Both the position numbers and the translations under genes were made by a program. The notes under the pieces are model-generated. The model did no database searches. It was not told the origin of the DNA and saw only the letters and a list, made by a program, of their open reading frames with translations. From Enterobacteria phage ATK47: DNA of 64,000 bases. Shown here in pieces: positions 29,976-62,857 of the stretch (positions are counted from its first letter, which is position 1; each line of letters starts with the position of its first letter). Location: sequence record NC_055708.1, one strand, 5' to 3'.

Positions 29976-30146
29976 ATGCAAGTTAAATTATTGTACCGTT
30001 TATTAAAAAACGGCAAACATGATTGGTATTTGCTTATTAAAACCGATCCGAATTTTTTCTCTGGACAACCATTTACAGTTCGTCCTACTAAACGTCAGCT
30101 TCGCAAAGCTAAACGTTCTCATCGTAACTTTTATAGAGAATATTGA
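29976..30146 (+). CDS. small basic protein (paralog of 30571 gene)
   Basis: shared C-terminal RPTKR..R..K..R..FY..Y pattern. Confidence 0.35.
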   Translation: MQVKLLYRLLKNGKHDWYLLIKTDPNFFSGQPFTVRPTKRQLRKAKRSHRNFYREY

Positions 30147-30147
30147 T

Positions 30148-30561
30148 ATGAATATTTCTGAAACTCGCGGTAAATGGTTCAAGATTGTTAAAGAAGATGA
30201 AGAACTACAAGTCAAGTTTCCTGAATTAAAGAAAGGAACAATCATCAAGGTAATTGGTACTACTACCGAAGATGGTTATGGCGACCATGGCATTATCGAA
30301 GTGATGTTGAACACAGGTGAGAAACTTTGCATCTATGACCGTGATACTTCTCTTTGGTGCTTCTGGGAATCCCATTCAATAGATGAACTCGAAGAAATTG
30401 ACCAAGTAGTTTGTGATGGTGGACTTGGCGAATTCGAAGGTGAACGTATTTCTTATGCTTTAGCTAAATTAGCTGGTCAAGAAAATAATGACGGTTATGA
30501 AGGTAATCTGATGCAAGCCGCAGCGGAATACATTGAATACTTAGAAAGACGTTTAAGTTAA
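30148..30561 (+). CDS. hypothetical acidic protein
   Basis: ORF from ATG at 30148. Confidence 0.45.
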   Translation: MNISETRGKWFKIVKEDEELQVKFPELKKGTIIKVIGTTTEDGYGDHGIIEVMLNTGEKLCIYDRDTSLWCFWESHSIDELEEIDQVVCDGGLGEFEGERISYALAKLAGQENNDGYEGNLMQAAAEYIEYLERRLS

Positions 30562-30789: not shown

Positions 30790-31263
30790 ATGTTATTATC
30801 AGGCGCAAAATATAAAGAAGAAAAACAAAAATTTTATGATGCACAGAACGGTAAGTGTCCTATTTGCCACCGTGAATTAGACCCTGATGTTCAAGGTAAC
30901 CATCTTGACCATGACCACGAATTAAAAGGGCCAAAAGCCGGTAGAGTTCGTGGTTTACTATGTAACCTGTGCAATGCAGCAGAAGGTCAAATGAAGCATA
31001 AGTTCAACCGTTCCGGTTTGAAAGGTCAAAACGTTGACTACTTAGAATGGCTTGAAGCTCTTCTTGCTTATTTGAAACAAGATTATTCTGATAATAATAT
31101 CCATCCTAATTTTGTTCCGGATAAAACTAAAGAGTTCTCAAGACTAGGTAAAGAGGAAATGATGACCGAGATGCTTCAAAGAGGATTTGAATATAATGAA
31201 TCTGATACTAAAACACAATTAATAGCTTCATTCAAAAAGCAGCTTAGAAAGAGTTTAAAATGA
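30790..31263 (+). CDS. 49: endonuclease VII (Holliday junction resolvase)
   Basis: MLLSGAKYKEEKQKFYDAQNGKCPIC..HLDHDHEL..LCNLCNAAEGQ; near-identical to remembered T4 gp49; 157 aa. Confidence 0.9.
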   Translation: MLLSGAKYKEEKQKFYDAQNGKCPICHRELDPDVQGNHLDHDHELKGPKAGRVRGLLCNLCNAAEGQMKHKFNRSGLKGQNVDYLEWLEALLAYLKQDYSDNNIHPNFVPDKTKEFSRLGKEEMMTEMLQRGFEYNESDTKTQLIASFKKQLRKSLK

Positions 31264-33077
31264 AAATTGAAAAAGAAATTGAAGGATTAATTTATAAAAC
31301 TAATAAAGATCTTTTGAACGAGAATGCTAATAAAGATTCTCGTGTTTTTCCAACTCAACGGGACCTTATGGCTGGTATTGTGTCTAAGCACATTGCCAAA
31401 AATATGGTCCCGTCTTTTATTATGAATGCGCATGAAAGCGGAATCATTCATATGCATGATATTGATTATTCTCCTGCTCTTCCATTTACTAATTGCTGTT
31501 TAGTCGATTTAAAGGGGATGCTTGAGAATGGATTTAAATTAGGCAATGCTCAAATTGAAACGCCTAAATCGATTGGTGTTGCTACTGCAATTATGGCACA
31601 AATTACTGCACAAGTTGCTTCCCATCAATACGGCGGAACGACTTTTGCTAATGTAGATAAAGTACTTTCTCCTTATGTTAAACGCACCTATGCAAAACAT
31701 ATTGAGGATGCAGAAAAATGGCAAATCGCTGATGCGTTGAATTATGCTCAATCCAAAACAGAAAAAGATGTCTATGACGCATTCCAAGCTTATGAATATG
31801 AAGTAAATACTCTCTTTAGTTCAAACGGACAAACGCCTTTTGTAACAATTACATTTGGTACTGGAACTGATTGGACCGAACGAATGATTCAGAAGGCAAT
31901 TCTTAAAAACCGCATTAAAGGTCTTGGTCGTGATGGAATAACTCCTATTTTCCCTAAACTTGTTATGTTTGTCGAAGAGGGTGTTAATCTTTATAAAGAC
32001 GATCCGAACTATGATATTAAGCAACTCGCTCTAGAGTGTGCAAGCAAAAGAATGTATCCTGACATTATTTCTGTTAAGAATAATAAAGCTATTACCGGTT
32101 CTTCAGTTCCAGTTTCTCCAATGGGTTGCCGTAGTTTCTTGAGCGTATGGAAAGATTCGACCGGTAATGAAATTCTTGATGGACGTAATAATCTCGGTGT
32201 TGTAACACTGAATCTTCCTCGTATCGCATTAGATTCTTATATTGGAACACAGTTCAATGAACAGAAATTTGTTGAATTATTCAACGAACGAATGGATCTG
32301 TGCTTTGAAGCTTTGATGTGTAGAATTAGTTCCTTAAAAGGAGTTAAAGCGACTGTTGCTCCTATTCTTTACCAAGAAGGTGCATTCGGGGTTCGTCTTA
32401 AACCTGACGACGATATAATTGAGTTATTTAAAAACGGTAGAAGTTCAGTGTCTTTAGGATACATTGGTATTCATGAATTGAATATTCTTGTTGGCCGTGA
32501 TATTGGACAAGAAATTTTAACTAAGATGAATGCTCATCTTAAACAGTGGACTGAAAGAACTGGATTTGCTTTTAGCTTGTATTCTACACCTGCTGAAAAC
32601 CTTTGTTATCGTTTCTGTAAACTCGACACAGAAAAATACGGAAGTGTAAAGGATGTCACTGATAAAGGCTGGTACACTAATAGTTTCCATGTTTCAGTAG
32701 AAGAAAATATTACTCCGTTTGAAAAGATTTCTCGTGAAGCGCCATATCATTTCATTGCGACAGGTGGTCACATTTCTTATGTTGAACTTCCAGATATGAA
32801 AAACAATTTAAAGGGACTTGAGGCTGTCTGGGATTATGCTGCACAACATTTAGATTATTTTGGTGTTAATATGCCAGTAGATAAGTGTTTTACATGCGGA
32901 AGCACCCATGAAATGACTCCTACTGAAAACGGATTTGTTTGTTCAGTTTGCGGAGAAACTGATCCTAAAAAGATGAACACTATAAGAAGGACCTGCGGTT
33001 ATTTGGGAAATCCGAACGAGCGCGGATTTAATCTAGGCAAAAATAAAGAAATCATGCATAGGGTTAAACACCAATGA
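31260..33077 (+). CDS. nrdD: anaerobic ribonucleoside-triphosphate reductase NrdD
   Basis: 605 aa; C-terminal glycyl-radical motif RRTCGYLG and Zn ribbon CFTCGS..CSVCG. Confidence 0.9.
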   Translation: MKIEKEIEGLIYKTNKDLLNENANKDSRVFPTQRDLMAGIVSKHIAKNMVPSFIMNAHESGIIHMHDIDYSPALPFTNCCLVDLKGMLENGFKLGNAQIETPKSIGVATAIMAQITAQVASHQYGGTTFANVDKVLSPYVKRTYAKHIEDAEKWQIADALNYAQSKTEKDVYDAFQAYEYEVNTLFSSNGQTPFVTITFGTGTDWTERMIQKAILKNRIKGLGRDGITPIFPKLVMFVEEGVNLYKDDPNYDIKQLALECASKRMYPDIISVKNNKAITGSSVPVSPMGCRSFLSVWKDSTGNEILDGRNNLGVVTLNLPRIALDSYIGTQFNEQKFVELFNERMDLCFEALMCRISSLKGVKATVAPILYQEGAFGVRLKPDDDIIELFKNGRSSVSLGYIGIHELNILVGRDIGQEILTKMNAHLKQWTERTGFAFSLYSTPAENLCYRFCKLDTEKYGSVKDVTDKGWYTNSFHVSVEENITPFEKISREAPYHFIATGGHISYVELPDMKNNLKGLEAVWDYAAQHLDYFGVNMPVDKCFTCGSTHEMTPTENGFVCSVCGETDPKKMNTIRRTCGYLGNPNERGFNLGKNKEIMHRVKHQ

Positions 33078-33544
33078 ATTATGATAGATTTTATCCTTGC
33101 GATTTTGTGAATGGCCCTGGTTGTAGGGTCGTTCTTTTCGTTACAGGGTGTTTGCATAAATGCGAAGGGTGTTATAATAAATCAACATGGAATGCTAGAA
33201 ATGGTGTTCCATTCACTGGTGAAACACTAGAACAATTAATTGAATGTTTGAATAATGATTATATAGAAGGATTAACTATAACCGGAGGTGACCCTCTCTA
33301 TCCTGATAACCGAGATGTTATTCATTGCATTGTTCAAACAGTAAAAAATCTTTATCCTAATAAAAGCATTTGGTTGTGGACAGGATATACGTTTGAAGAT
33401 ATTAAACAACTAGAAATGCTTAAATATGTTGATGTTATTATTGATGGGAAGTATGAGAAAAATCTTCCGACCAAAAAACTGTGGCGAGGATCAGATAATC
33501 AGCGACTTTGGTCAAATACCGATGGGGTGTGGAAACATGATTAA
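33074..33544 (+). CDS. nrdG: anaerobic RNR activating protein NrdG (radical SAM)
   Basis: Cys cluster GCLHKCEGCYN; downstream of nrdD. Confidence 0.8.
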   Translation: MNYDRFYPCDFVNGPGCRVVLFVTGCLHKCEGCYNKSTWNARNGVPFTGETLEQLIECLNNDYIEGLTITGGDPLYPDNRDVIHCIVQTVKNLYPNKSIWLWTGYTFEDIKQLEMLKYVDVIIDGKYEKNLPTKKLWRGSDNQRLWSNTDGVWKHD

Positions 33545-45161: not shown

Positions 45162-47873
45162 ATGAAAGAATTTTACTTAACGGTTGAACAGATTGGTGAT
45201 TCAATTTTTGAACGTTACATCGATTCTAATGGCCGTGAACGTACTCGTGAAGTAGAATATAAACCATCACTGTTTGCTCATTGTCCAGAAAGTCAGGCTA
45301 CTAAATATTTCGATATCTACGGTAAACCTTGTACTCGTAAGTTGTTCGCTAATATGCGTGATGCCTCCCAATGGATTAAACGCATGGAAGATATCGGACT
45401 TGAAGCACTTGGCATGGACGATTTCAAATTGGCGTATTTGTCTGACACTTATAACTATGAAATCAAATATGACCATACAAAAATTCGTGTGGCTAACTTC
45501 GACATCGAAGTAACATCCCCGGATGGGTTCCCTGAGCCGTCACAAGCAAAACATCCGATTGATGCTATCACCCATTATGACTCAATTGACGACAGGTTCT
45601 ACGTATTTGATCTATTGAATTCTCCATATGGCAATGTAGAAGAATGGTCTATCGAAATTGCGGCTAAGCTTCAAGAACAAGGTGGTGATGAAGTTCCATC
45701 TGAAATTATCGATAAAATCATTTATATGCCGTTTGATAATGAAAAAGAATTATTGATGGAATATCTCAACTTCTGGCAACAGAAAACTCCTGTCATTTTG
45801 ACTGGATGGAACGTTGAGTCATTTGATATTCCATATGTGTATAATCGAATCAAGAATATTTTTGGTGAATCCACAGCAAAACGGTTGTCGCCACATCGTA
45901 AAACTCGTGTTAAAGTTATCGAAAACATGTATGGTTCTCGTGAAATCATTACATTGTTCGGTATCTCTGTTCTTGATTACATTGACCTTTACAAAAAATT
46001 CTCTTTCACAAACCAACCGTCGTATTCTCTGGATTACATTTCAGAATTTGAATTGAACGTTGGTAAACTGAAATATGACGGCCCTATTTCTAAGCTTCGT
46101 GAAAGCAATCACCAACGATATATTTCTTATAACATTATCGACGTATATCGTGTATTGCAAATTGATGCTAAACGCCAGTTCATTAACTTGAGCTTGGACA
46201 TGGGTTATTATGCTAAGATACAGATTCAATCTGTGTTTAGCCCAATTAAAACATGGGATGCTATTATTTTTAATAGCCTTAAAGAGCAGAACAAGGTGAT
46301 TCCACAAGGTCGTTCTCACCCGGTTCAACCTTATCCTGGCGCTTTTGTTAAGGAACCTATTCCAAATCGATACAAATATGTAATGAGTTTCGACCTTACA
46401 TCTCTGTATCCAAGTATTATTCGCCAAGTGAATATTAGCCCAGAAACAATAGCAGGAACGTTTAAAGTAGCTCCATTGCATGATTATATTAACGCAATCG
46501 CTGAACGTCCTTCAGATGTGTACAGTTGCTCTCCTAACGGCATGATGTATTATAAAGACCGTGACGGTGTAGTTCCAACTGAAATCACTAAGGTCTTTAA
46601 TCAACGTAAAGAACATAAAGGTTATATGCTTGCGGCTCAACGTAATGGTGAAATAATTAAAGAGGCGTTGCATAATCCTAATCTTTCTGTTGACGAACCA
46701 TTAGATGTTGATTATCGTTTCGACTTCACTGACGAGATTAAAGAAAAGATTAAAAAGTTGTCTGCTAAATCTCTTAATGAAATGTTGTTTAGAGCTCAAC
46801 GTACTGAAGTTGCAGGTATGACTGCACAAATTAACCGTAAATTGCTTATCAACTCGCTTTATGGTGCACTTGGTAACGTATGGTTCCGTTATTACGATTT
46901 GCGTAATGCTACTGCAATCACAACATTCGGGCAAATGGCTTTACAGTGGATTGAACGTAAAGTTAATGAATATCTGAATGAAGTTTGTGGTACAGAAGGT
47001 GAAGCTTTCGTTCTTTATGGTGATACAGACTCTATTTACGTATCTGCTGATAAAATTATCGATAAGGTTGGTGAATCTAAATTCCGTGATACCAACCATT
47101 GGGTAGACTTCTTAGATAAGTTTGCACGTGAACGTATGGAACCAGCTATTGATAAAGGTTTCCGTGAAATGTGTGAATACATGAACAATAAACAACACTT
47201 AATGTTCATGGACCGAGAAGCTATCGCTGGTCCTCCGCTCGGTTCTAAAGGTATTGGTGGATTCTGGACCGGTAAGAAACGTTATGCATTAAACGTGTGG
47301 GATATGGAAGGAACTAGATACGCTGAGCCTAAACTCAAAATCATGGGTCTCGAAACACAGAAATCTTCGACCCCTAAAGCAGTACAGAAAGCTCTTAAAG
47401 AATGTATTCGTCGTATGCTTCAAGAAGGTGAAGAATCATTACAAGAATATTTTAAAGAGTTTGAAAAAGAATTCCGTCAATTGAATTATATTAGCATCGC
47501 GTCAGTATCTTCTGCGAATAACATTGCTAAATATGACGTTGGTGGATTCCCTGGTCCTAAATGCCCGTTCCATATTCGTGGAATTCTGACATATAACAGA
47601 GCTATCAAAGGTAATATTGATGCTCCACAAGTTGTAGAAGGTGAAAAAGTATATGTTCTGCCTTTACGTGAAGGAAACCCATTCGGTGATAAATGTATCG
47701 CATGGCCTTCTGGTACTGAAATCACAGATTTAATTAAAGACGACGTACTTCATTGGATGGACTACACTGTTCTCCTTGAGAAGACATTTATTAAACCACT
47801 TGAAGGATTCACATCAGCAGCGAAACTCGATTACGAGAAGAAAGCATCTCTGTTCGATATGTTCGATTTTTGA
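45162..47873 (+). CDS. 43: DNA polymerase gp43 (family B, with 3'-5' exonuclease)
   Basis: 903 aa; exo motif FDIEV; polymerase motifs SLYPSII, YGDTDS. Confidence 0.95.
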   Translation: MKEFYLTVEQIGDSIFERYIDSNGRERTREVEYKPSLFAHCPESQATKYFDIYGKPCTRKLFANMRDASQWIKRMEDIGLEALGMDDFKLAYLSDTYNYEIKYDHTKIRVANFDIEVTSPDGFPEPSQAKHPIDAITHYDSIDDRFYVFDLLNSPYGNVEEWSIEIAAKLQEQGGDEVPSEIIDKIIYMPFDNEKELLMEYLNFWQQKTPVILTGWNVESFDIPYVYNRIKNIFGESTAKRLSPHRKTRVKVIENMYGSREIITLFGISVLDYIDLYKKFSFTNQPSYSLDYISEFELNVGKLKYDGPISKLRESNHQRYISYNIIDVYRVLQIDAKRQFINLSLDMGYYAKIQIQSVFSPIKTWDAIIFNSLKEQNKVIPQGRSHPVQPYPGAFVKEPIPNRYKYVMSFDLTSLYPSIIRQVNISPETIAGTFKVAPLHDYINAIAERPSDVYSCSPNGMMYYKDRDGVVPTEITKVFNQRKEHKGYMLAAQRNGEIIKEALHNPNLSVDEPLDVDYRFDFTDEIKEKIKKLSAKSLNEMLFRAQRTEVAGMTAQINRKLLINSLYGALGNVWFRYYDLRNATAITTFGQMALQWIERKVNEYLNEVCGTEGEAFVLYGDTDSIYVSADKIIDKVGESKFRDTNHWVDFLDKFARERMEPAIDKGFREMCEYMNNKQHLMFMDREAIAGPPLGSKGIGGFWTGKKRYALNVWDMEGTRYAEPKLKIMGLETQKSSTPKAVQKALKECIRRMLQEGEESLQEYFKEFEKEFRQLNYISIASVSSANNIAKYDVGGFPGPKCPFHIRGILTYNRAIKGNIDAPQVVEGEKVYVLPLREGNPFGDKCIAWPSGTEITDLIKDDVLHWMDYTVLLEKTFIKPLEGFTSAAKLDYEKKASLFDMFDF

Positions 47874-47913: not shown

Positions 47914-48549
47914 ATGAAAACTACACCAATCACTATCGCTATTGACGCAATCGTAAAACAAGCTTCTTCTTTGGCTACTATGGCCAAAGTAATTAGTCAA
48001 AACCCTGCTCGTTATAATGCTATTCTAGAAACTCTTCGACGCCCAGGACTTAGTAATTATGAAAGCCGAGTAATTATTACAGGTGTTGGTAAGAATGCTA
48101 ATATTGCAACTAAAGCTTCTGAGACATTTGCTTCACTCGGTATCCCAAGTATGTACTTGAACACCGGGCATTATTCTCACGGTGATGCAGGATTCATTGC
48201 GCCTAATGATGTGTTGATTCATATTAGTCGTTCTGGTAAGACTGAAGAAATGATAGGTGTTGCTAAACATCTTCGTATGATTCGTCCTCAGGTTAAACAG
48301 ATTCTGTTACATTGTAACCCTGACATTCCACAAGAATACGAAGCTCTTTTTGATTATACGTTCTGTACCGGTATCGCGGTAGAAGTTGACGAGAACTCTT
48401 TAGCTCCGACAATGTCCACTACATTGTTGTTAGCGCTTATCGATACGTTCGCTATCAACCTTTCGTCTGAACGCGGATTTACCTCTAATGACTTCCTTAA
48501 GTTCCACCCTGGTGGTGCACTAGGTGCCATGTTACGAGGCGAGCAATGA
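47914..48549 (+). CDS. SIS-domain sugar-phosphate isomerase (KdsD/GutQ arabinose-5-phosphate isomerase-like, no CBS domains)
   Basis: ITGVGKNANIATK, HGDAGFI, ISRSGKTEE, LAPTMSTT and FHPGGALG match SIS-domain isomerase motifs. Confidence 0.7.
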   Translation: MKTTPITIAIDAIVKQASSLATMAKVISQNPARYNAILETLRRPGLSNYESRVIITGVGKNANIATKASETFASLGIPSMYLNTGHYSHGDAGFIAPNDVLIHISRSGKTEEMIGVAKHLRMIRPQVKQILLHCNPDIPQEYEALFDYTFCTGIAVEVDENSLAPTMSTTLLLALIDTFAINLSSERGFTSNDFLKFHPGGALGAMLRGEQ

Positions 48550-48689
48550 AAGCAATAACAATAGGACTTTTACTATTGATGCTTGTCATGACTATCTACT
48601 GGAGCTTAACGGCTCCAGTAATGATTCCGACTCTTATAATCGGATGGATTATGATTGGACTACAAGCAAAGTATGAATGCTTTAACTAG
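48546..48689 (+). CDS. small hydrophobic protein (47 aa, below ORF-track cutoff)
   Basis: translated by hand; ATGA overlap with upstream stop. Confidence 0.3.
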   Translation: MKAITIGLLLLMLVMTIYWSLTAPVMIPTLIIGWIMIGLQAKYECFN

Positions 48690-48730
48690 AATAGTGTACA
48701 ATACACCTACTTACCAATGAGGACCACAAC

Positions 48731-50416
48731 ATGAAAAAAGCTGTTATTCTTGGTGCTGGACTGGCAACTCGTTTGTATCCAATAACGCATCATATTCCTA
48801 AGGTGCTTGTTAACTATAAACAAGACACTATTCTGAGCAATTTGTATACAATTTATTCTGACCTTGGCGCAGATGAAATTATTGTAGTAGTTCATTCAAA
48901 ATTTGCTGAAACTGTTCGAGCTTATTGCGAGCAAGAAGGGTTCAATGCGACTATTCGTACAGTTGATGAAGCGTATGGTTCTGCTTATGCTCTTGCTAAA
49001 TTATACAAAGATTTAGATGGCCATAATGTAATTGTTAACTGGTGTGATATTATTCCTGATTTTGGTTCATGGTCTTGGAATGTTAACGCAATCTATGTTA
49101 AGGGTGATGAATGTCGATATAATTTCGATGGTGAAAATATCACTAACGTAGGTTCAACAGGCGGTAATGTTGTAGGAATTTATCAGTTCAAAGACTGGGA
49201 ATTCTACATGGGTTCTACTGATGAGGAAATTCACGAATACTGCAAAGGACGTGATTTCGTAGAATTCCTTTACGGCAGTGCATTCAATAAATCAGAGCTT
49301 ATGAATCTAATTGATTTAGGTGATATGCCTAAACTTGAAAAAGCTCATGAAGTTCGTGAACTTAATCGTAGTTTTAATGCAGTTGAAATTGGCGAAGAAA
49401 CTGTAACTAAATTCGCGTTAACCGAACAAGGTCGAGCTCTTCAGAAAGATGAGATTTCATGGTATTTGAAAGTGAAATCAGATTCAGTCCCTCAGTTAGT
49501 TTCTGTTAATGAAAATAACTTTGAAATGGAACGTATTAAAGGTAAGCCGGCATTTGAATATATTAAATCCAAATCAAGTCTTGCTCGTCCACAAATTGTT
49601 GATGCAATTTTAGATGCACTGAAATTCAGCACAGACACTTATTTTGTAAGTCCTGAAACTGTTCGCCGTGATTTCACTAAAGAGTTCTATACGAAAGTTA
49701 TTGATCGTTGTGAAAGCATTCAGCCATTGATTGATTCATTTGGTAAAATCACACACGTGAACTACACTAAGATTGGACGTCTGAAGCCAATGTTGAAACA
49801 AGCTTTAGAACATCTTATTCGTTATCATAACCGTTCTCAGGGACAGTACTCTGTTATTCACGGTGATCCGAACTTCAGTAATACTATGATTACTGATAAC
49901 GGCGAAGTCAAGTTTATCGACCCTCGTGGATATTTTGGTGAAACCAAGATTTACGGACCAAAATTGTATGATGAAGCTAAAGTGCTTTATGCTGTTTCAG
50001 GTTATGATGAATTCAACGCTAATCCGACCTGGGGCCAGTTTATTATTGATGAAACAACTTGTAATGTGACTATTAACATCAATCCATTAGTTTACAAATA
50101 TGGAAAGATGAGTTCGTTTAACGAGTATCATCATTTGGCAGTAGCAATTATCTGGATTGCATTAGGTGGTTATTTCAAGAATAATCCACTTAAAGCGGTA
50201 GCCGCATATTATAAAGGTATGGAACTTCTGACTAAGCAATTACGTAACATGGGCCGTGTACTTCAAGATGGCTCTATTAGTTATGACGTAGCAGAACCTG
50301 TAACGGCTACTCTGATTACAAAAAATCCTGGTAAATGGGTACTAACTGATAAAGAAACTGGTGTTTCCTATCGTCCAATCGGTGGCGATATCACTCATCA
50401 ATGGGAACGAATCTAA
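48731..50416 (+). CDS. bifunctional sugar-1-phosphate nucleotidyltransferase (N-terminal) / anomeric sugar kinase (C-terminal)
   Basis: N-terminal AVILGAGLATRL as in LicC/RmlA-type nucleotidyltransferases; C-terminal HGDPNFSNTMI...FIDPRG as in choline/aminoglycoside/AmgK kinases. Confidence 0.7.
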   Translation: MKKAVILGAGLATRLYPITHHIPKVLVNYKQDTILSNLYTIYSDLGADEIIVVVHSKFAETVRAYCEQEGFNATIRTVDEAYGSAYALAKLYKDLDGHNVIVNWCDIIPDFGSWSWNVNAIYVKGDECRYNFDGENITNVGSTGGNVVGIYQFKDWEFYMGSTDEEIHEYCKGRDFVEFLYGSAFNKSELMNLIDLGDMPKLEKAHEVRELNRSFNAVEIGEETVTKFALTEQGRALQKDEISWYLKVKSDSVPQLVSVNENNFEMERIKGKPAFEYIKSKSSLARPQIVDAILDALKFSTDTYFVSPETVRRDFTKEFYTKVIDRCESIQPLIDSFGKITHVNYTKIGRLKPMLKQALEHLIRYHNRSQGQYSVIHGDPNFSNTMITDNGEVKFIDPRGYFGETKIYGPKLYDEAKVLYAVSGYDEFNANPTWGQFIIDETTCNVTININPLVYKYGKMSSFNEYHHLAVAIIWIALGGYFKNNPLKAVAAYYKGMELLTKQLRNMGRVLQDGSISYDVAEPVTATLITKNPGKWVLTDKETGVSYRPIGGDITHQWERI

Positions 50417-50802
50417 TGCACCGTGTAGAAAACATGCTTAATCTTTGTTTTGATGTCGATGATTGTATAACAGAGTGGAATAACAATCGTGATTATGTGA
50501 ACTTCAAACCAGACGTCGAAATGGTGACCGCCATTAATGCCCTGTATGATGCAGGGCATACCATAACGCTTTACACTGCTCGTGGTATGAAGTCGGTAGG
50601 TCCTGGTCGTATAGCAATTGACATTCTCCCAAGTCTGATTCAGAACTTGGAAAACATTGGTTTGAAGTACCATAATTTGCTAACACATAAACCAGTATAT
50701 GATTGGATTATCGACGACAAAGCTATGCGTCCTGACGAATTCAAAGCTCTTATGAATAAAGGCGAATTCGAAACATTTAAATCGTATAAACCGAATCTAT
50801 AA
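50416..50802 (+). CDS. HAD-superfamily phosphatase
   Basis: motif I FDVDDCIT; small cap-less HAD architecture; TAATG overlap with upstream gene. Confidence 0.55.
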   Translation: MHRVENMLNLCFDVDDCITEWNNNRDYVNFKPDVEMVTAINALYDAGHTITLYTARGMKSVGPGRIAIDILPSLIQNLENIGLKYHNLLTHKPVYDWIIDDKAMRPDEFKALMNKGEFETFKSYKPNL

Positions 50803-50853
50803 TAATTTAAGTAAGACCTGCAAAAAAAAACCCATCGCATCAATTAACGCGAG

Positions 50854-52023
50854 ATGCAAAAAATGAATACTTTTAAAATCGGAACGAATTTTGATTTAGC
50901 TCTTCTTGATAAAATCGTAGAGCTCAATAAAACTTATCCTAATAGCTTGATAAATGAAGTATACGGCTCTACAAGAGAAATGGCTTTTGTAGCAGCCAGA
51001 CCTGATTTTAGGCTTCCTGACGTTGACAAAAAGATGTTAGAAGACTACGTTAAACGTTGTAACGAATTAGGTATTTGCTTTAACTATACACTCAACACGA
51101 TAAATCCTGGTTCAAAAAGAGAACTAGTTGAGTGGAAGAAGAAAGCTATTCAGGATTATGTTCAGTATCTTTGGTCAATAGGCGTATGGCGTATTACTAT
51201 CGCTAACCCTGTTGTTATGGAAATTGTTCGTGAAGTCAATAAAGACATTGAGATTGAAGTTTCAACAATTCTACATGTTGATGCTGTAACTCAAATCAAA
51301 TACTTGCACGACCAATATAACATCAAAAAAGTCTGTTGCGGAATTCATAAGAACCGTTCAGTTTCTTTCCTGAAGCGTGCAGCAGAGTTTTGCAATAAGA
51401 ACAATATAATATTTGAAGTTCTTGTAAATGAGTTCTGTTCTAATGCTGGTAAAGGGTATACAACACATTGTAGCTATCGTGACTCTTGCTATATTTTCCA
51501 TAGTACTGATGTTACCGCTGATGATGCTAAATCCTTAAATGGATATCCTATGCAGCACTGTATTAAAGCTCGTGATACAGACCCATTTAACTGGCTGAGA
51601 ACTCGTTTTGTTCGTCCTCAAGATTTGAAACTTTATAATGATATTGGTATCACTCAATTCAAAGTTTCAGGACGTACAGGTAGCACAGACTACATTTTGA
51701 AAGTTCTTGAAGCATACGCTTCTGAAAAGTTTGAAGGTAATTTGTTAGAACTGTGGAAGCCTTTAGAGACTATTTTCACTCTTGAAAATGAGACTGAGTT
51801 TTCACATACAGTAAATATTGAAACCTCATTGTTAGACGGTTTTTTAGAAAAAAGGTGGTTCAGACATCCAGATTTCGATTGTGCTAATGAAATCTGCGGG
51901 ACGACGTGTACATATTGTGAAAGATATTATAAACGTCAGTTATCTAAAAATGGGTTATCAGAAAACTCTATATCTATTATTGATATAACTAACTCTGATG
52001 ACGCTTTGAGGTACCCGGAATGA
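50854..52023 (+). CDS. hypothetical protein, Cys-rich C-terminus (candidate sugar-modifying or transferase enzyme)
   Basis: 389 aa ORF inside the island; CANEICGTTCTYC cluster; function not recognisable. Confidence 0.45.
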   Translation: MQKMNTFKIGTNFDLALLDKIVELNKTYPNSLINEVYGSTREMAFVAARPDFRLPDVDKKMLEDYVKRCNELGICFNYTLNTINPGSKRELVEWKKKAIQDYVQYLWSIGVWRITIANPVVMEIVREVNKDIEIEVSTILHVDAVTQIKYLHDQYNIKKVCCGIHKNRSVSFLKRAAEFCNKNNIIFEVLVNEFCSNAGKGYTTHCSYRDSCYIFHSTDVTADDAKSLNGYPMQHCIKARDTDPFNWLRTRFVRPQDLKLYNDIGITQFKVSGRTGSTDYILKVLEAYASEKFEGNLLELWKPLETIFTLENETEFSHTVNIETSLLDGFLEKRWFRHPDFDCANEICGTTCTYCERYYKRQLSKNGLSENSISIIDITNSDDALRYPE

Positions 52024-52259
52024 TTTCTAGAAAAACTTTTAACCACCAACTTAATGAAGAGATTTTGACTATAAAACTGAACACTAACGAACAAATTCTT
52101 AAAAAGGCCCTTATGGGCCTGTTTGAAACCAAAGCGGCTAAAGTGATTAAAGAACCTGTTCAATTGGAATACTACACTGATGCATTCCTTCATAGTGTTC
52201 TTGGAAGTATAGATTCTGAAGCTTTACGTTATATCAACATTGCCAAGAAATTCAAATAA
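52020..52259 (+). CDS. hypothetical protein
   Basis: 79 aa ORF, ATGA overlap. Confidence 0.4.
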   Translation: MISRKTFNHQLNEEILTIKLNTNEQILKKALMGLFETKAAKVIKEPVQLEYYTDAFLHSVLGSIDSEALRYINIAKKFK

Positions 52260-52301
52260 GCTTTACGAATTGAGTATATAATAAATTGTATTGAGGTAAA
52301 C

Positions 52302-53018
52302 ATGGGAAAACATAACACAATGAAATATATCAAAGCCGCAGATTTTCAAGCCGCATTTAAAGCAGTCAATCGTGAAATTTTAGAAAATCCTGAATTCGTA
52401 ACTGATTCTCGTATTGGACGTTGTAATGAAATCGGGTCCATGACAGTAGTTGTTGACAATCCATCATCATTCAAAATGACCGACCCACGTATTAACCGCA
52501 TCTCTTATGAATATGCCGAAGACTTCTGGAAGTTTATGATTTCTGGTGGTACTGATGCAGAAGAAGCGTTTAAGGCATATCCTAATGTCGCTAAATTTAT
52601 TTCTAAACCTAAATCAGACGCTTTGCCGGCGAACTTCAACACTTTCTATGGTCCTCGCATTGCGGCCCAATTACCAGCTCTTCTAAAAGAACTTAAAGAG
52701 AAACCTAACTCTCGAAGAGTTGTGTTCCAAATTCTAGAAAGTTCTGATCAGGCTTTGCTTGATTCGGACGAAACACTTGAATATCCATGTACTGACTCAG
52801 TGACTTATTATATTCGCGATGGTAAGCTTTATACCCACTGTCATATGCGTTCTCAGAACTGTGCTGTTGTTATGCAGTTGGATTTTTATCTCCAAGGAAA
52901 ATTACTTCATTATATCGCTAACGAATGCGGCGTAGAAGTTGGTGATTATACTCATACCATGGTAAGTGCCCATGTGTTTGAACGTGATTTTGATTATGTT
53001 AAAGGATTCCTTGACTAA
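52302..53018 (+). CDS. thymidylate-synthase-family deoxypyrimidylate hydroxymethylase (gp42-like, divergent)
   Basis: KPNSRRVVF, nucleophile motif YPCTDSVTYYIRD, MRSQN...QLDFY align to remembered T4 dCMP hydroxymethylase NPDSRR / MCTNTVQYLIRD / MRSND...RNDY. Confidence 0.7.
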   Translation: MGKHNTMKYIKAADFQAAFKAVNREILENPEFVTDSRIGRCNEIGSMTVVVDNPSSFKMTDPRINRISYEYAEDFWKFMISGGTDAEEAFKAYPNVAKFISKPKSDALPANFNTFYGPRIAAQLPALLKELKEKPNSRRVVFQILESSDQALLDSDETLEYPCTDSVTYYIRDGKLYTHCHMRSQNCAVVMQLDFYLQGKLLHYIANECGVEVGDYTHTMVSAHVFERDFDYVKGFLD

Positions 53019-53917
53019 TGGCTATTTTCCGCGTACCAATCTTGAGTATGCGGTCTTATGAAACTGGACAGTATGCTATCCTTAAGGATGGCAACTTCCA
53101 ACTTCATTTGCACCGTGCTAATCCAGGTGATGTGATTACATATCCACGTAATGCATCTGATATTAAAGAATGTGAACGTCTTTTCCCGGAATTTAAGTTT
53201 GTTCCATTATGGTATAAAGATAACGCGTATAACACTCGTAAATATTTCTGGTCTGAAAATGAATTTGTGGTTGATTCATTAATTGCTTATTATGATTGTG
53301 ATTTTCTAATAACAGATATCACTGGATATGACGGCGCTTTTGATGTAGAATTCAATTTCAATATCACTGCAGACCCTAATAAACCACGTTTTTATATTGA
53401 TGAATTCTTAAAAACCGATATGTTGTCGGTTAATCGTTCACTTCAAACTACTGTGTTGAATGAACGTCAAAAAGAAGTGCTGGTTAACGCCGGTGCAGAT
53501 GGTAATAAGATTATCGTAACGCAGAAAGTTATACGTCCTTCCATCATGCAGCGTCTTGTAGGTGATTTGGCTCCTATTCATGTAGATGGTATTTTTCATC
53601 CATTTCGAATTAGTGATCCGTGTTATCATTTTGAACAAGTGGTTGAATGTGCAATTCAATTAGGTCAACCGCTTTATATAACTGATCCAAATAATAGCTT
53701 TGACAGAAATAAGTATCCTGAAGAAGCGCTGATTCGAATTTTTAAACCAACTAAAACTGAGTACTATCAAATTCTTAAAGGACGTCCGAAGATTCAATAT
53801 TTCGAAAATCCTGAAGAAGTATTCCATCCAGGTCTTGGTGAGTTCATCTACTTTAATGCTTTAATTTCTTCGCCGTATAATATACCTAAATACGAAGATG
53901 TCGTAATCGAGGAATAA
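53018..53917 (+). CDS. hypothetical protein at T4 beta-gt position (candidate DNA glycosyltransferase)
   Basis: 299 aa ORF, position only; no motif recognised. Confidence 0.4.
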   Translation: MAIFRVPILSMRSYETGQYAILKDGNFQLHLHRANPGDVITYPRNASDIKECERLFPEFKFVPLWYKDNAYNTRKYFWSENEFVVDSLIAYYDCDFLITDITGYDGAFDVEFNFNITADPNKPRFYIDEFLKTDMLSVNRSLQTTVLNERQKEVLVNAGADGNKIIVTQKVIRPSIMQRLVGDLAPIHVDGIFHPFRISDPCYHFEQVVECAIQLGQPLYITDPNNSFDRNKYPEEALIRIFKPTKTEYYQILKGRPKIQYFENPEEVFHPGLGEFIYFNALISSPYNIPKYEDVVIEE

Positions 53918-53918
53918 A

Positions 53919-54467
53919 ATGGCTAAAATTATTTTAGTAGATGGCCCAGATAATGCTGGTAAAACAACTTTCATTAATGACATAATGGAAATTAGTGAAA
54001 GATATGTAAAGATTGATTTCCCTAAACGAACAGTTGATGGACGTTTCGATGTTAAGTCTCGAAATGAAGTTGGCTGTTTCGAAACGATGTTGAATTATTT
54101 AGACCCTACTAAGATTTATCTGTTAGACCGTGGATATATTAGTAACTGGGTTTATGGACGTATTCGACAAGATGCGGACTCGGTTCTTGACGTTTATGAA
54201 CAGGACTATGTTCGTCTTTGCCAAAACCATGATGTGTTCACAATTATTTTAACACGTAACGAAATGACTGAAAGTTTTGAAGACGACCTTATTACTTTGT
54301 CTTCATTCGGTTTTAATACAGTCATTTCACATTTTGAAGAGTTTGCAATTCATAACAAAATCCAAACGTATCAATTACTTAATCATGATGGTGCTAACAA
54401 AGTTATAGGATTTAATGCAAGCGAACGTAATTATTTGATTACAGAAATTATCAAATGGGCTCGTTAA
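53919..54467 (+). CDS. thymidylate-kinase-like P-loop nucleotide kinase
   Basis: P-loop VDGPDNAGKTT and LDRGYISNWVYG (DRY-type motif) resemble dTMP kinase family. Confidence 0.55.
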   Translation: MAKIILVDGPDNAGKTTFINDIMEISERYVKIDFPKRTVDGRFDVKSRNEVGCFETMLNYLDPTKIYLLDRGYISNWVYGRIRQDADSVLDVYEQDYVRLCQNHDVFTIILTRNEMTESFEDDLITLSSFGFNTVISHFEEFAIHNKIQTYQLLNHDGANKVIGFNASERNYLITEIIKWAR

Positions 54468-54565: not shown

Positions 54566-55738
54566 ATGTCTGATTTAAAATCTCGTCTGATTAAAGCTTC
54601 TACTTCTAAAATGACTGCCGACTTGACCAAGTCTAAGCTCTTTAATAATCGTGATGAAGTCCCTACTCGTATTCCGATGTTGAATATTGCACTAGGTGGT
54701 GCTCTGAATGCAGGATTGCAATCAGGCTTGACTATTTTTGCTGCACCTTCTAAACACTTTAAAACATTGTTTGGGCTGACTATGGTTGCAGCGTATATGA
54801 AGAAATATAAAGATGCAATCTGTTTGTTTTATGACTCGGAATTTGGTGCTTCAGAATCTTATTTTCGTTCAATGGGTGTTGATTTAGACCGTGTAGTTCA
54901 CACACCAATTCAGTCCGTCGAACAACTTAAAGTTGATATGACTAATCAGCTTGACGCTATTGAACGCGGTGATAAAGTTATTATCTTTATCGATTCAATC
55001 GGTAATACTGCATCTAAGAAAGAAACCGAAGATGCATTGAACGAGAAAGTTGTAGGTGATATGTCTCGTGCTAAGGCACTTAAATCTCTGTTCCGTATTG
55101 TGACTCCTTATCTGACTATTAAAGATATTCCGTGTGTTGCAATCAACCATACAGCAATGGAAATCGGCGGACTATATCCTAAAGAGATTATGGGCGGTGG
55201 TACAGGTATTCTTTACTCTGCTAACACTGTATTCTTTATCTCTAAACGTCAGGTTAAAGAAGGTACAGAATTGACAGGTTATGACTTCACGTTGAAAGCA
55301 GAAAAATCTCGTACTGTTAAAGAAAAATCTACTTTCCCGATCACGGTTAATTTTGATGGCGGTATTGATCCATTCAGTGGCTTGTTAGAAATGGCAACTG
55401 AAATTGGATTTGTTGTTAAGCCTAAAGCTGGTTGGTATGCTCGTGAATTCCTTGACGAAGAAACAGGCGAAATGATTCGTGAAGAAAAATCATGGCGTGC
55501 TAAAGCTACTGATTGTGTAGAATTCTGGGGGCCGTTGTTTAAACACAAACCTTTCCGAGATGCAATTGAAACTAAATATAAACTAGGTGCTATCTCTTCT
55601 ATTAAAGAAGTTGATGACGCTGTTAACGACCTTATTAATTGCAAAGCAACAACTAAAGTTCCGGTTAAAGCTTCTGATGCTCCGTCTGCAGCAGATATAG
55701 AAAACGACCTTGACGAAATGGAAGATTTCGATGAATAA
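54566..55738 (+). CDS. uvsX: recombinase UvsX (RecA-like)
   Basis: 390 aa; MSDLKSRLIKAS...; Walker A FAAPSKHFKT; near-identical to remembered T4 UvsX. Confidence 0.95.
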   Translation: MSDLKSRLIKASTSKMTADLTKSKLFNNRDEVPTRIPMLNIALGGALNAGLQSGLTIFAAPSKHFKTLFGLTMVAAYMKKYKDAICLFYDSEFGASESYFRSMGVDLDRVVHTPIQSVEQLKVDMTNQLDAIERGDKVIIFIDSIGNTASKKETEDALNEKVVGDMSRAKALKSLFRIVTPYLTIKDIPCVAINHTAMEIGGLYPKEIMGGGTGILYSANTVFFISKRQVKEGTELTGYDFTLKAEKSRTVKEKSTFPITVNFDGGIDPFSGLLEMATEIGFVVKPKAGWYAREFLDEETGEMIREEKSWRAKATDCVEFWGPLFKHKPFRDAIETKYKLGAISSIKEVDDAVNDLINCKATTKVPVKASDAPSAADIENDLDEMEDFDE

Positions 55739-62247: not shown

Positions 62248-62335
62248 AATATCTCCTTGGTTACCTATTATTTATTACGCTTTATAAAATTAATGTTAGA
62301 ATTAACTCTCTTATACTGAATTGAAAGGAAAAATA

Positions 62336-62857
62336 ATGGCACACTTTAATGAATGTTCACAACTTATTTCTGGTGTTGATAAAGCAGAAGAAGCTTATTT
62401 TAATGCTCTGATTCACGAAGATAAAGACCCACTGCAGGTAATGCTTGATATGCAGAAATCTTTACAGGTTCGTCTGGCAAATGACAAGCCTGAACATAAC
62501 AAACATCCTGATGAATTGGCCACTGCTGGTGATGTTGTTGATTGGCTGCGTAATCAGAAAGATTATATTGATGATGAATTCCGTGAACTGTTGACTTCAC
62601 TTGGTGGTATGAGCAATGGTGAAAAAGCCGCCAGCAGTGTATGGAAGCCATGGAAAGCACAACATGCTGAATATCGAAATCGTCGTATCGATGAACTGTC
62701 TCCTGAAGACCAGCTTGAAATTAAATTTGAAATGATTGATATTCTGCATTTCGTTCTAAATATGTTCCAAGGTCTAGGTCTTTCGGCTGAAGAAATCTTT
62801 AAACTTTACTACTTGAAAAACCAACACAACTTTGAACGTCAGGATAATGGTTACTAA
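62336..62857 (+). CDS. 56: dCTPase/dCDPase gp56 (MazG-like)
   Basis: MAHFNECSQLI...; 173 aa; position next to 61 as in T4. Confidence 0.8.
   Translation: MAHFNECSQLISGVDKAEEAYFNALIHEDKDPLQVMLDMQKSLQVRLANDKPEHNKHPDELATAGDVVDWLRNQKDYIDDEFRELLTSLGGMSNGEKAASSVWKPWKAQHAEYRNRRIDELSPEDQLEIKFEMIDILHFVLNMFQGLGLSAEEIFKLYYLKNQHNFERQDNGY

Follow-up and report, generated by a model that had tools for sequence, protein, structure and literature searches.

A predicted gene cluster for arabinosylated 5-hydroxycytosine in phage ATK47 and a possible role of its U32-family protein in anaerobic hydroxylation

Results

A nine-gene cluster shared with RB69

The 64,000-nucleotide stretch of Enterobacteria phage ATK47 analysed here (NC_055708.1, hereafter the window) carries at positions 47914-54467 a Mosigvirus gene cluster of the RB69 type, which very probably (we put the probability at about 0.93) serves to replace the cytosine of the virion DNA with mono- and di-arabinosylated 5-hydroxycytosine. 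The cluster as such has been described before: a role in making UDP-arabinose was suggested in 2018, and the pathway was elucidated in 2025-2026 (Mahler 2025; He 2026; Lee 2026, PMC13326640). One member, a U32-family protein, is tentatively proposed below as a second hydroxylase, working when oxygen is absent.

The cluster is flanked by the gp43 DNA polymerase gene (45162-47873) and uvsX (54566-55738). An earlier note, made from the sequence alone, had listed seven co-oriented, tightly packed open reading frames (ORFs) here, and these seven were found exactly where it had placed them. The count has to be raised to nine, however, since two additional conserved small ORFs lie in the same region. 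The genes, together with a dCTPase homologue encoded outside the cluster, are as follows.

47914-48549, + strand, 211 aa: putative arabinose-5-phosphate isomerase with a SIS domain only (RB69 gp55 homologue, 97% identical); Pfam SIS 4e-10, phrog_5670 1.5e-116
48546-48689, + strand, 47 aa: hydrophobic peptide with two membrane helices predicted from the translation; phrog_3610 4.5e-27
48731-50416, + strand, 561 aa: putative bifunctional enzyme (AfhE-like; RB69 gp52:53), N-terminal sugar-1-phosphate nucleotidyltransferase (residues 3-109) and C-terminal APH/choline-kinase-like kinase
50401-50802 (start at 50401 or 50416), + strand, 133 aa: HAD-type phosphatase (AfhF-like; RB69 gp51); phrog_1238 5e-43, DVDDC motif at residue 18
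50854-52023, + strand, 389 aa: U32-family protein (RB69 gp50, 99.7% identical); Pfam Peptidase_U32 7.4e-11, 42.2 bits against a cut-off of 22.4
52020-52259, + strand, 79 aa: RB69 gp49 homologue; phrog_8601 5.5e-51, start overlapping the U32 stop codon by 4 nt
52302-53018, + strand, 238 aa: predicted flavin- and O2-dependent dCMP 5-hydroxylase (5-hydroxy-dCMP synthase) of the thymidylate synthase (TS) fold (RB69 gp48); Pfam Thymidylat_synt 2.4e-15
53018-53917, + strand, 299 aa: glycosyltransferase of predicted GT-B fold (AF2, Foldseek), candidate first arabinosyltransferase on 5-hydroxycytosine (RB69 gp46:47)
53919-54467, + strand, 182 aa: TMK-like P-loop nucleotide kinase (RB69 gp45); phrog_761 2.4e-45, weak TIGR00041, GPDNAGKT at residue 9
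62321-62857, + strand, outside 47914-54467: NTP pyrophosphohydrolase (T4 gp56 / RB69 gp28 dCTPase homologue); phrog_173 1.8e-45

The nine genes are spaced at -16 to +51 nt, and every product has a PHROG family match (E 1e-27 to 1e-293). The 6.5-kb stretch is kept at 95-100% identity in 153 phage records: it is 100% identical in the Mosigvirus ATK48 and 95-99% identical in 152 further records, mostly of Escherichia and Shigella phages. Because of these matches and this conservation, the ORFs can be regarded as real genes and not as chance. The proteins gp45-gp55 of RB69 are 92-99.7% identical to those of the window and their genes stand in the same order. The RB69 reference record differs in that two genes are split (gp52/53 and gp46/47); the window counterparts (561 aa and 299 aa) are intact single ORFs, which supports the published view that the RB69 splits are sequencing errors. 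As the earlier note had said, T4 carries other genes in the equivalent slot between 43 and uvsX, in the order imm.1, imm, 42, beta-gt and segA.

The TS-fold enzyme and the modified base

The 238-aa protein had been taken for a hydroxymethylase of the TS family; the family assignment was borne out, the hydroxymethylase function was not. Homologues from four further genera were aligned with the protein, together with E. coli ThyA and T4 gp42. The window protein and these homologues carry Cys146, L143E, D169N and N177D (E. coli ThyA numbering) and the motifs LEYPC...RSQN...LDF (PC162, RSQN 183-186, LDF 193 in the former), where T4 gp42 has RSND. At position 169 the window protein and all four phage homologues have Asn, T4 gp42 and ThyA of E. 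coli have Asp. A T4-type dCMP hydroxymethylase was thus rejected for the 238-aa protein, as Asn replaces Asp169.

Asn at this position is diagnostic for 5-hydroxylating TS homologues (PMC13326640). In the same study, RB69 gp48 bound flavin mononucleotide and made 5-hydroxy-dCMP from dCMP with incorporation of 18O from 18O2; the product was 5-hydroxydeoxycytidine (5hodC) and not its 5-hydroxymethyl analogue, and gp48 plus a kinase was enough for 5hodC formation in aerobic E. coli. The window protein is 99.2% identical to gp48. Along its full length of 238 residues it also shares 98% identity with PDB entries 9iqc and 9ir2, and 9iqu comprises residues 5-238 of that sequence; these entries are presumably the structure of the HY126 enzyme, which was reportedly crystallized with flavin (He et al. 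2026, as cited in PMC13326640). T4 dCMP hydroxymethylase chains were not among the best 60 of 108 PDB sequence matches, where ThyA and MilA were present.

Concerning the base itself, the DNA of RB69 and of Acinetobacter phage DLP3 contains mono-, di- or tri-arabinosylated 5-hydroxycytosine, and nuclear magnetic resonance and mass spectrometry placed the ether link of the sugar directly at C5, without a methylene group (PMC13326640). The DNA of the Mosigvirus NP contains 5-ara-dC and 5-ara-ara-dC, and the earlier hydroxymethyl assignment was called erroneous (PMC13390438). The arabinosylated 5-hydroxymethylcytosine (hmC) which the earlier note had regarded as established in T-even relatives is therefore now seen as a mis-assigned, ether-linked 5-O-arabinosyl-cytosine. 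Taken together, D169N and the chemistry of RB69 gp48 point to 5-hydroxycytosine as the ether-linked acceptor in the window phage.

The sugar-nucleotide branch

The isomerase, the fused sugar-1-kinase/nucleotidyltransferase and the HAD phosphatase proposed earlier were all recovered by domain searches, and the three proteins are 97-99.5% identical to RB69 gp55, gp52:53 and gp51. The 211-aa isomerase matches the NCBIfam models kpsF (5e-32) and KdsD (2e-30), both under the curated cut-offs because the protein is SIS-only: the match spans model positions 2-153 of 268 or 47-202 of 328, and the tandem CBS pair of KdsD/GutQ is absent, the NCBIfam model alignment ending before the CBS half. KdsD, GutQ and KpsF, its best family matches, share with it the SIS catalytic domain, but are about 320-330 aa long with the CBS pair. 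The window protein is accordingly a truncated form which is predicted to work like an arabinose-5-phosphate isomerase.

In the 561-aa enzyme, 99.4-99.5% identical to that of RB69, Pfam NTP_transferase was matched at residues 3-99 (3.7e-9) and kinase families weakly at 308-409; the kinase half is further marked by a match to PDB 1jyk (3.9e-5) and by an HGDPNFSN catalytic loop at residue 377. The enzyme would convert arabinose-5-phosphate to arabinose-1,5-bisphosphate and, later, arabinose-1-phosphate to uridine diphosphate (UDP)-arabinofuranose. The intermediate step, from the bisphosphate to arabinose-1-phosphate, would be that of the HAD protein, which matches the capsule biosynthesis phosphatase family TIGR01689 (2e-13, under the curated cut-off).

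The earlier note had put dephosphorylation before anomeric phosphorylation. According to the account of the HY126 enzymes in PMC13326640 (citing He et al. 2026), the order is the reverse: AfhE converts arabinose-5-phosphate to the 1,5-bisphosphate, AfhF takes off the 5-phosphate, and AfhE then forms UDP-arabinose. The host does not make UDP-arabinofuranose (PMC13326640), hence the three-enzyme donor pathway carried by the phage. Arabinose was found in RB69 DNA by Thomas et al. in 2018, who proposed that UDP-arabinose is made by the genes located between gp43 and uvsX (PMC6024577). A phage-encoded route to UDP-arabinofuranose is thus present in the window as a predicted gene set of isomerase, kinase/pyrophosphorylase and HAD phosphatase.

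In the clusters of Dhakavirus IME08 (locus L006, 6131-11175) and Shewanella phage Thanatos-2 (L008) the SIS isomerase is missing. Upstream of the bifunctional enzyme, imm is found in Dhakavirus and a protein with an Imm_superinfect domain in Thanatos-2 (L008, 1988-2491). These phages may rely on host KdsD/GutQ for arabinose-5-phosphate.

Transferase, kinase and dCTPase

Since neither the 299-aa nor the 389-aa protein has a PDB sequence match at E<=1, structure prediction was needed for both. The 299-aa protein, which also lacks any Pfam match, was modelled with a pLDDT of 94.3 from a 34-sequence alignment, and Foldseek returned the GT-B enzymes MshA 3c4q, 5ze7 and 6kih at TM about 0.6. Matches 3c4q and 6kih are common to our model and to the published work on RB69, in which gp46:47, 98-99% identical to the window protein, was proposed as the first arabinosyltransferase (PMC13326640). 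One of the two proteins that the earlier note had left without function thus models as the transferase it had expected.

The second arabinosyltransferase, RB69 gp3, which would serve the di-arabinosyl form, gave no tblastn match within the window. Its gene lies by rIIA in RB69, a position that by synteny falls beyond these 64 kb; the genome as a whole may still encode it. In DLP3 the pair gp76+gp77 has tri-arabinosylation activity with UDP-arabinofuranose as the donor on DNA (PMC13326640).

The family and P-loop matches of the 182-aa protein agree with the kinase proposed earlier. Its gene always adjoins a gene of the family of the 299-aa glycosyltransferase (hereafter GT1), also in the uncultured phages described below. 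The dCTPase homologue, the true start of which is probably downstream of the mechanically chosen TTG, belongs to a protein listed in the arabinosyl-5-hydroxycytosine pathway (Table 1 of PMC13326640).

The U32 protein: family, fold and cysteines

The 389-aa Cys-rich protein had been considered a possible transferase. This was rejected, as the protein belongs by its Pfam score to the U32 family and its model (AF2, pLDDT 89.8) has the TIM-barrel U32 fold, with the U32 structure 5d88 as the best PDB structural match, and not a glycosyltransferase fold. When the phage family was aligned by hhalign to E. coli TrhP/RlhA/UbiU, the match scored 95.5% (E 1.4e-8, 209 columns). In pairwise BLASTP against RlhA and TrhP insignificant fragments only were obtained, so the kinship is visible with profiles alone. 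With 17-22% identity to the E. coli U32 proteins, the phage proteins constitute a subfamily of their own, carried by phages and about 360-390 aa in length.

Ten cysteines are invariant across 27 members of the phage family, down to 46% identity. By hhalign, C206, C212 and C236 align with C170, C177 and C197 of TrhP, that is, with three of the four canonical Fe-S positions, though MAFFT gives an alternative register; the invariant C195 nearby is a candidate for the fourth ligand. The invariant C-terminal cluster C343/C348/C352/C355 recalls the essential C-terminal cysteines of RlhA.

The characterized relatives are hydroxylases. RlhA forms 5-hydroxycytidine (ho5C2501) in 23S rRNA without O2 and needs prephenate. 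TrhP forms 5-hydroxyuridine (ho5U34) in tRNA, likewise O2-independent and prephenate-needing, with the O2-dependent TrhO as aerobic backup, and UbiU/UbiV hydroxylate ubiquinone precursors without O2, with prephenate as the oxygen donor. The likeness of the phage protein to RlhA, TrhP and UbiUV consists of the Pfam U32 domain, the profile match, the fold of 5d88, the genomic link to prephenate supply described below and, tentatively, conserved cysteines in the U32 motif and at the C-terminus. The product of RlhA is the base 5-hydroxycytosine, the same as in the arabinosylated phage DNA. However, these enzymes act on RNA or quinone, and the substrate of the phage protein would be a deoxynucleotide or DNA.

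Chorismate mutase and the distribution of U32 in phages

Chorismate mutase is the enzyme that makes prephenate. A CM_2-type chorismate mutase gene overlaps the U32 stop codon in Kanagawavirus KLB31, Winklervirus Virsaitis27 and Thanatos-2 (38.5, 44.6 and 32.8 bits, against the Pfam threshold of 27). In Thanatos-2 the pair stands elsewhere in the cluster, thus both genes have moved together. U32 is unusually well conserved: the Thanatos-2 protein is 82% identical to that of the window, as compared with 71% for gp43, 68% for UvsX, 54% for the bifunctional enzyme and 48% for the transferase. Such a chorismate mutase was found in 48 phage records from at least 11 host genera; among the rows listed, its gene adjoins the TS homologue, and it overlaps U32 in several of them. 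The window has no chorismate mutase by CM_2 search at E<=10 or by a hidden Markov model (HMM) of the phage chorismate mutases, so any U32 reaction in this Mosigvirus would draw on host prephenate.

Acinetobacter is a strict aerobe. GT1 occurs in 347 phage records, 57 of them from Acinetobacter phages, and U32 in 220 records, with none from Acinetobacter. DLP3 has no U32 gene at all and its DNA is fully arabinosylated, which means that U32 is not required for donor synthesis or transfer.

Elsewhere in the window, genes for the anaerobic ribonucleotide reductase NrdD (31260-33077; Pfam NRDD 2.6e-171, with a glycyl radical domain) and its activase NrdG (33074-33544; Fer4_12, radical SAM) were found, preceded by endonuclease VII (30790-31263), just upstream of NrdD, and the PinA protease inhibitor (30019-30561). 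By its predicted NrdD/NrdG the phage is equipped to replicate without oxygen.

Uncultured phages with U32 and GT1

Searching 5.8 billion proteins for U32 gave a large set of homologues at 50-58% identity, and seven loci from six distinct phages were examined, with 14-17 kb of DNA visible per metagenomic contig. In three of them, L019 (6552-9089), L020 (6495-9101) and L021 (5459-9086), from contigs ERZ28614484 scaffold_1146, SRR33454321_1371 and SRR33674992_2970, the order TMK-like kinase, GT1 homologue and U32 is kept. The cassette adjoins genes of the dUTPase/dCTP-deaminase type and DNA polymerase III alpha, and lies within replication modules (primase, RecA, terminase) of phages that are not T4-like; the GT1 homologues have the N-terminal motif PIFSMRSYETG.Y..DGN. 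Judged from these gene sets, the three phages probably make a glycosylated hydroxypyrimidine.

Further neighbours of U32 in L020 (5777-14179) encode a Gly_transf_sug protein, a TAGT-like glycosyltransferase, a member of the dCTP deaminase/dUTPase family and a UDP-galactopyranose mutase. The set is reminiscent of Rhizobium phage RL38J1 with its galactofuranosyl-5-hydroxycytosine system, except that no TS homologue was seen nearby. In L014 (4939-10804 of SRR13394437_29825, an 80-kb phage-like contig) GT1, SIS, AfhE-like, U32, DAHP synthase and NAD-dependent epimerase genes stand in a row, with two UDG-family genes, a NUDIX gene and an adenylate-kinase-like gene upstream. The DAHP synthase is of the Bacillus type (NCBIfam 237 bits, as against 63 bits for KDO8P synthase); as the first enzyme of the shikimate pathway, its presence beside U32 provides a second, independent link to prephenate supply. 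The gene set of L014 may make a higher sugar. In L013, L015 and L016, U32 follows dCMP deaminase.

None of the seven loci showed a TS homologue in its flanks, which were read for 8 kb in both directions; downstream, the contig ends after 4.3 kb in L016 and after 4.5 to about 5.6 kb in L021. A home-made HMM detected no significant chorismate mutase near U32 in the metagenomic loci, the link with this enzyme being confined to the T4-like phages. GT1 and the TMK-like kinase are thus accompanied by the TS-type hydroxylase, by U32 or by both, which is the pattern expected if the two proteins are alternative makers of the hydroxyl acceptor.

Small ORFs and other features of the locus

The 79-aa ORF occupies the position of the chorismate mutase of the sister genera. 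It was considered as a diverged chorismate mutase, and this identity was rejected: there was no CM_2 match at E<=10, and against the HMM of phage chorismate mutases it scored about 0 bits by hmmsearch and 0.1% by hhalign. Yersinia phage phiR1-RT has both genes, the 79-aa homologue g049 (L009, 4501-4746) lying between U32 and a separate chorismate mutase. In Virsaitis27 the 114-aa chorismate mutase (L004, 6158-6499) has an N-terminal extension, MRRINHTMNELV, which resembles the N-terminus of the 79-aa ORF, ISRKTFNHQLNEEI; this suggests that a deletion fused an ORF of the 79-aa type with the chorismate mutase gene. The 79-aa protein may be an accessory factor of U32.

The 47-aa peptide, MKAITIGLLLLMLVMTIYWSLTAPVMIPTLIIGWIMIGLQAKYECFN, is very hydrophobic and its ORF overlaps the stop codon of the isomerase gene. 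Counterparts 62-66% identical to it stand at the equivalent position in Kanagawavirus and Winklervirus, and the ORF is annotated in phages AlbertHofmann and KLB31. It would be a small membrane protein amid the genes of a cytoplasmic nucleotide and sugar pathway.

The G+C content of the cluster (0.34-0.40) is no different from that of the flanks, thus the cluster is not a compositional island. Promoter and terminator scanning of the cluster gave no more sites than shuffled sequence and was therefore uninformative.

In Winklervirus Virsaitis27 (L004, 4352-4990) and Tegunavirus phiR1-RT (L009, 2707-3345) a gene for a Seg-like GIY-YIG homing endonuclease lies between the HAD phosphatase and U32 genes; the window is without it. 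Considering also segA of T4, the slot between gene 43 and uvsX appears to be a recurrent target of homing endonucleases.

In the GenBank record of ATK48 (KT184310.1) the 561-aa gene (73235-74920) and the 299-aa gene (77522-78421) are both unannotated, and 'repeat_region' features (StbAB binding site, ori type 2 repeat) are placed within the former.

Discussion

The proposed pathway and its alternatives

Judging from 97-99% identity, family or fold, the window proteins would do as their RB69 counterparts do. The dCTPase would convert dCTP to dCMP, which would also keep cytosine out of the DNA. The TS-fold enzyme would hydroxylate dCMP at C5 with flavin and O2, and kinases would phosphorylate 5-hydroxy-dCMP up to the triphosphate, to be used by the phage polymerase. 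On the sugar side, the SIS isomerase would make arabinose-5-phosphate from ribulose-5-phosphate, the kinase domain of the 561-aa enzyme would give arabinose-1,5-bisphosphate, the HAD phosphatase would remove the 5-phosphate and the nucleotidyltransferase domain would form UDP-arabinofuranose. The 299-aa GT-B enzyme would then transfer the first arabinose to the 5-hydroxyl, and a homologue of RB69 gp3, encoded outside the window, would be the second transferase. The base structure, the hydroxylase reaction, the deoxynucleoside monophosphate kinase step, the AfhE/AfhF reactions and the tri-arabinosylation by DLP3 gp76+gp77 are experimental in RB69, HY126 or DLP3, according to the literature (PMC13326640). 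Compared with this pathway of RB69, HY126 and DLP3 (the Afh genes), the cluster of the window repeats the gene set and gene order of RB69 gp55 to gp45, D169N included, and differs at the sequence level only. The DNA hypermodification through an activated pentose that the earlier note had postulated is upheld by the families, the folds, the identity to RB69 and the published RB69 pathway.

The glucosyl-hmC system of T4 (gp56, gp42, the gp1 kinase and the alpha- and beta-glucosyltransferases) follows the same logic in the same slot, with dCTPase, TS-fold enzyme, kinases and a GT-B transferase. It differs in its folate-dependent hydroxymethylation and Asp169, as against flavin/O2 hydroxylation, Asn169, a sugar ether at C5 and UDP-arabinofuranose as the donor in the window type; the sequence of the window transferase has no detectable similarity to solved structures.

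The 2018 model assumes a T4-like dCMP hydroxymethylase whose product, hmC, receives arabinose on its hydroxymethyl group from a transferase; the resulting arabinosyl-hmC was indeed reported for RB69 in that year (PMC6024577). The 238-aa enzyme does belong to the TS superfamily, shares N177D and L143E with T4 gp42, occupies the gene 42 position and is annotated as dCMP hydroxymethylase in many records. Nevertheless, the window protein has Asn169 in common with its four phage homologues where T4 gp42 and ThyA have Asp, the nearly identical RB69 gp48 yields 5hodC with oxygen from O2 (PMC13326640), and the ether link together with the revision in PMC13390438 has refuted the model for RB69; for ATK47 we regard it as very improbable. 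It is extremely unlikely that the cluster is instead an island of auxiliary metabolism acting on the envelope sugars of the host (3-deoxy-D-manno-octulosonate, capsule or lipopolysaccharide precursors) through arabinose-5-phosphate. A KdsD/KpsF-like isomerase and a HAD protein matching a capsule-biosynthesis phosphatase family would suit such a role, and PHROGs files both under auxiliary metabolic genes. However, the sugar genes are interleaved with those of the nucleotide hydroxylase and kinase between the replication genes gp43 and uvsX, an equivalent gene set co-occurs in phages with arabinosylated DNA, and the DLP3 transferases use UDP-arabinofuranose on DNA (PMC13326640).

Some points also weigh against the arabinosyl-5-hydroxycytosine pathway that we prefer. 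The base chemistry is known from RB69, DLP3 and NP, and the ATK phage from its genes alone. Three of the nine genes (U32, 79-aa and 47-aa) have no place in the published scheme, the 299-aa protein is a candidate arabinosyltransferase by its model, and the second transferase gp3 is not in the window. Furthermore, the purified DLP3 transferases singly gave no arabinosylation of 5-hydroxycytosine-containing DNA (PMC13326640), so that the acceptor may be the nucleotide or the DNA.

U32 as a possible anaerobic hydroxylase

The only demonstrated hydroxylase of the pathway needs O2, yet the phage has NrdD/NrdG. We tentatively propose, with a chance that we put only a little short of even, that the U32 protein is an Fe-S, prephenate-dependent, O2-independent C5-hydroxylase of deoxycytidine nucleotides or DNA, and thus a second, anaerobic route to 5-hydroxycytosine. 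When O2 is absent, it would form 5-hydroxy-deoxycytidine nucleotides or hydroxylate DNA; its position in cassettes of dNTPase, kinase and transferase genes favours a nucleotide substrate. In the sister genera it would work together with the chorismate mutase encoded just downstream, and in the uncultured phages with the TMK-like kinase, GT1 and U32 and no nearby TS homologue it would be the only hydroxylase. A TS-type/U32 pair would parallel the paired aerobic and anaerobic enzymes TrhO/TrhP, UbiIHF/UbiUV and NrdAB/NrdDG. A link between U32, prephenate and phage DNA modification was not found in the accessible literature, a scope that excludes He 2026 and Mahler 2025; Lee et al. mention the RlhA/TrhP pathways solely as unrelated to the TS-type enzyme (PMC13326640).

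The U32 protein could well act otherwise, in the sugar branch, as a peptidase or as an RNA modifier like TrhP/RlhA, with no hydroxylation of deoxycytidine nucleotides; we consider this a serious possibility, although below even odds. RB69 gp50 is labelled 'sugar or heterocycle reductase' by Lee et al. (Table 1 of PMC13326640) and U32 is annotated 'UDP-arabinose biosynthesis' in BASEL; in L014, moreover, U32 lies among SIS, kinase/nucleotidyltransferase and epimerase genes. We know of no U32 member that is a sugar reductase, however, and peptidase activity in the family is doubted. A place in the sugar branch is also difficult to reconcile with the fully arabinosylated DNA of DLP3, a phage that has no U32, and with the coupling of U32 to chorismate mutase in 48 phage genomes and to GT1/TMK-like genes where no TS homologue was found nearby. 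On the other hand, the characterized U32 pyrimidine hydroxylases all act on RNA, and in aerobic E. coli 5hodC needs just gp48 and the kinase (PMC13326640).

The proposed anaerobic hydroxylase is further weakened by one canonical Fe-S cysteine that is not aligned, by a phyletic pattern that is phylogenetically non-independent, by the E. coli Dhakaviruses, which are without U32, and by the gene context in L014, which also fits a sugar-related role. In addition, a TS homologue may sit elsewhere on the metagenomic contigs.

Significance

The cluster explains the DNA of therapeutic and model coliphages (RB69, Mosigviruses and relatives) that resists restriction enzymes and CRISPR, and also why type IV systems such as BrxU detect such DNA. 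Since the biology of the RB69 type is already in the literature, the cluster as such adds no new biology and its practical value lies in the correction of annotations: many database records, ATK48 included, call the hydroxylase 'dCMP hydroxymethylase' or 'thymidylate synthase'. What is still of interest is the U32 gene, together with the chorismate mutase found in sister phages, the role of the TMK-like kinase and whether the first arabinose is placed on the nucleotide or on the DNA. If the proposal made for it is true, the phage protein would be the first DNA-directed U32 hydroxylase and a second, independent origin of the hydroxyl 'handle' for DNA glycosylation. It would point to a class of uncultured phages with hydroxylated, glycosylated pyrimidines and no TS homologue, and it would explain how gut phages can replace their cytosine totally without oxygen.

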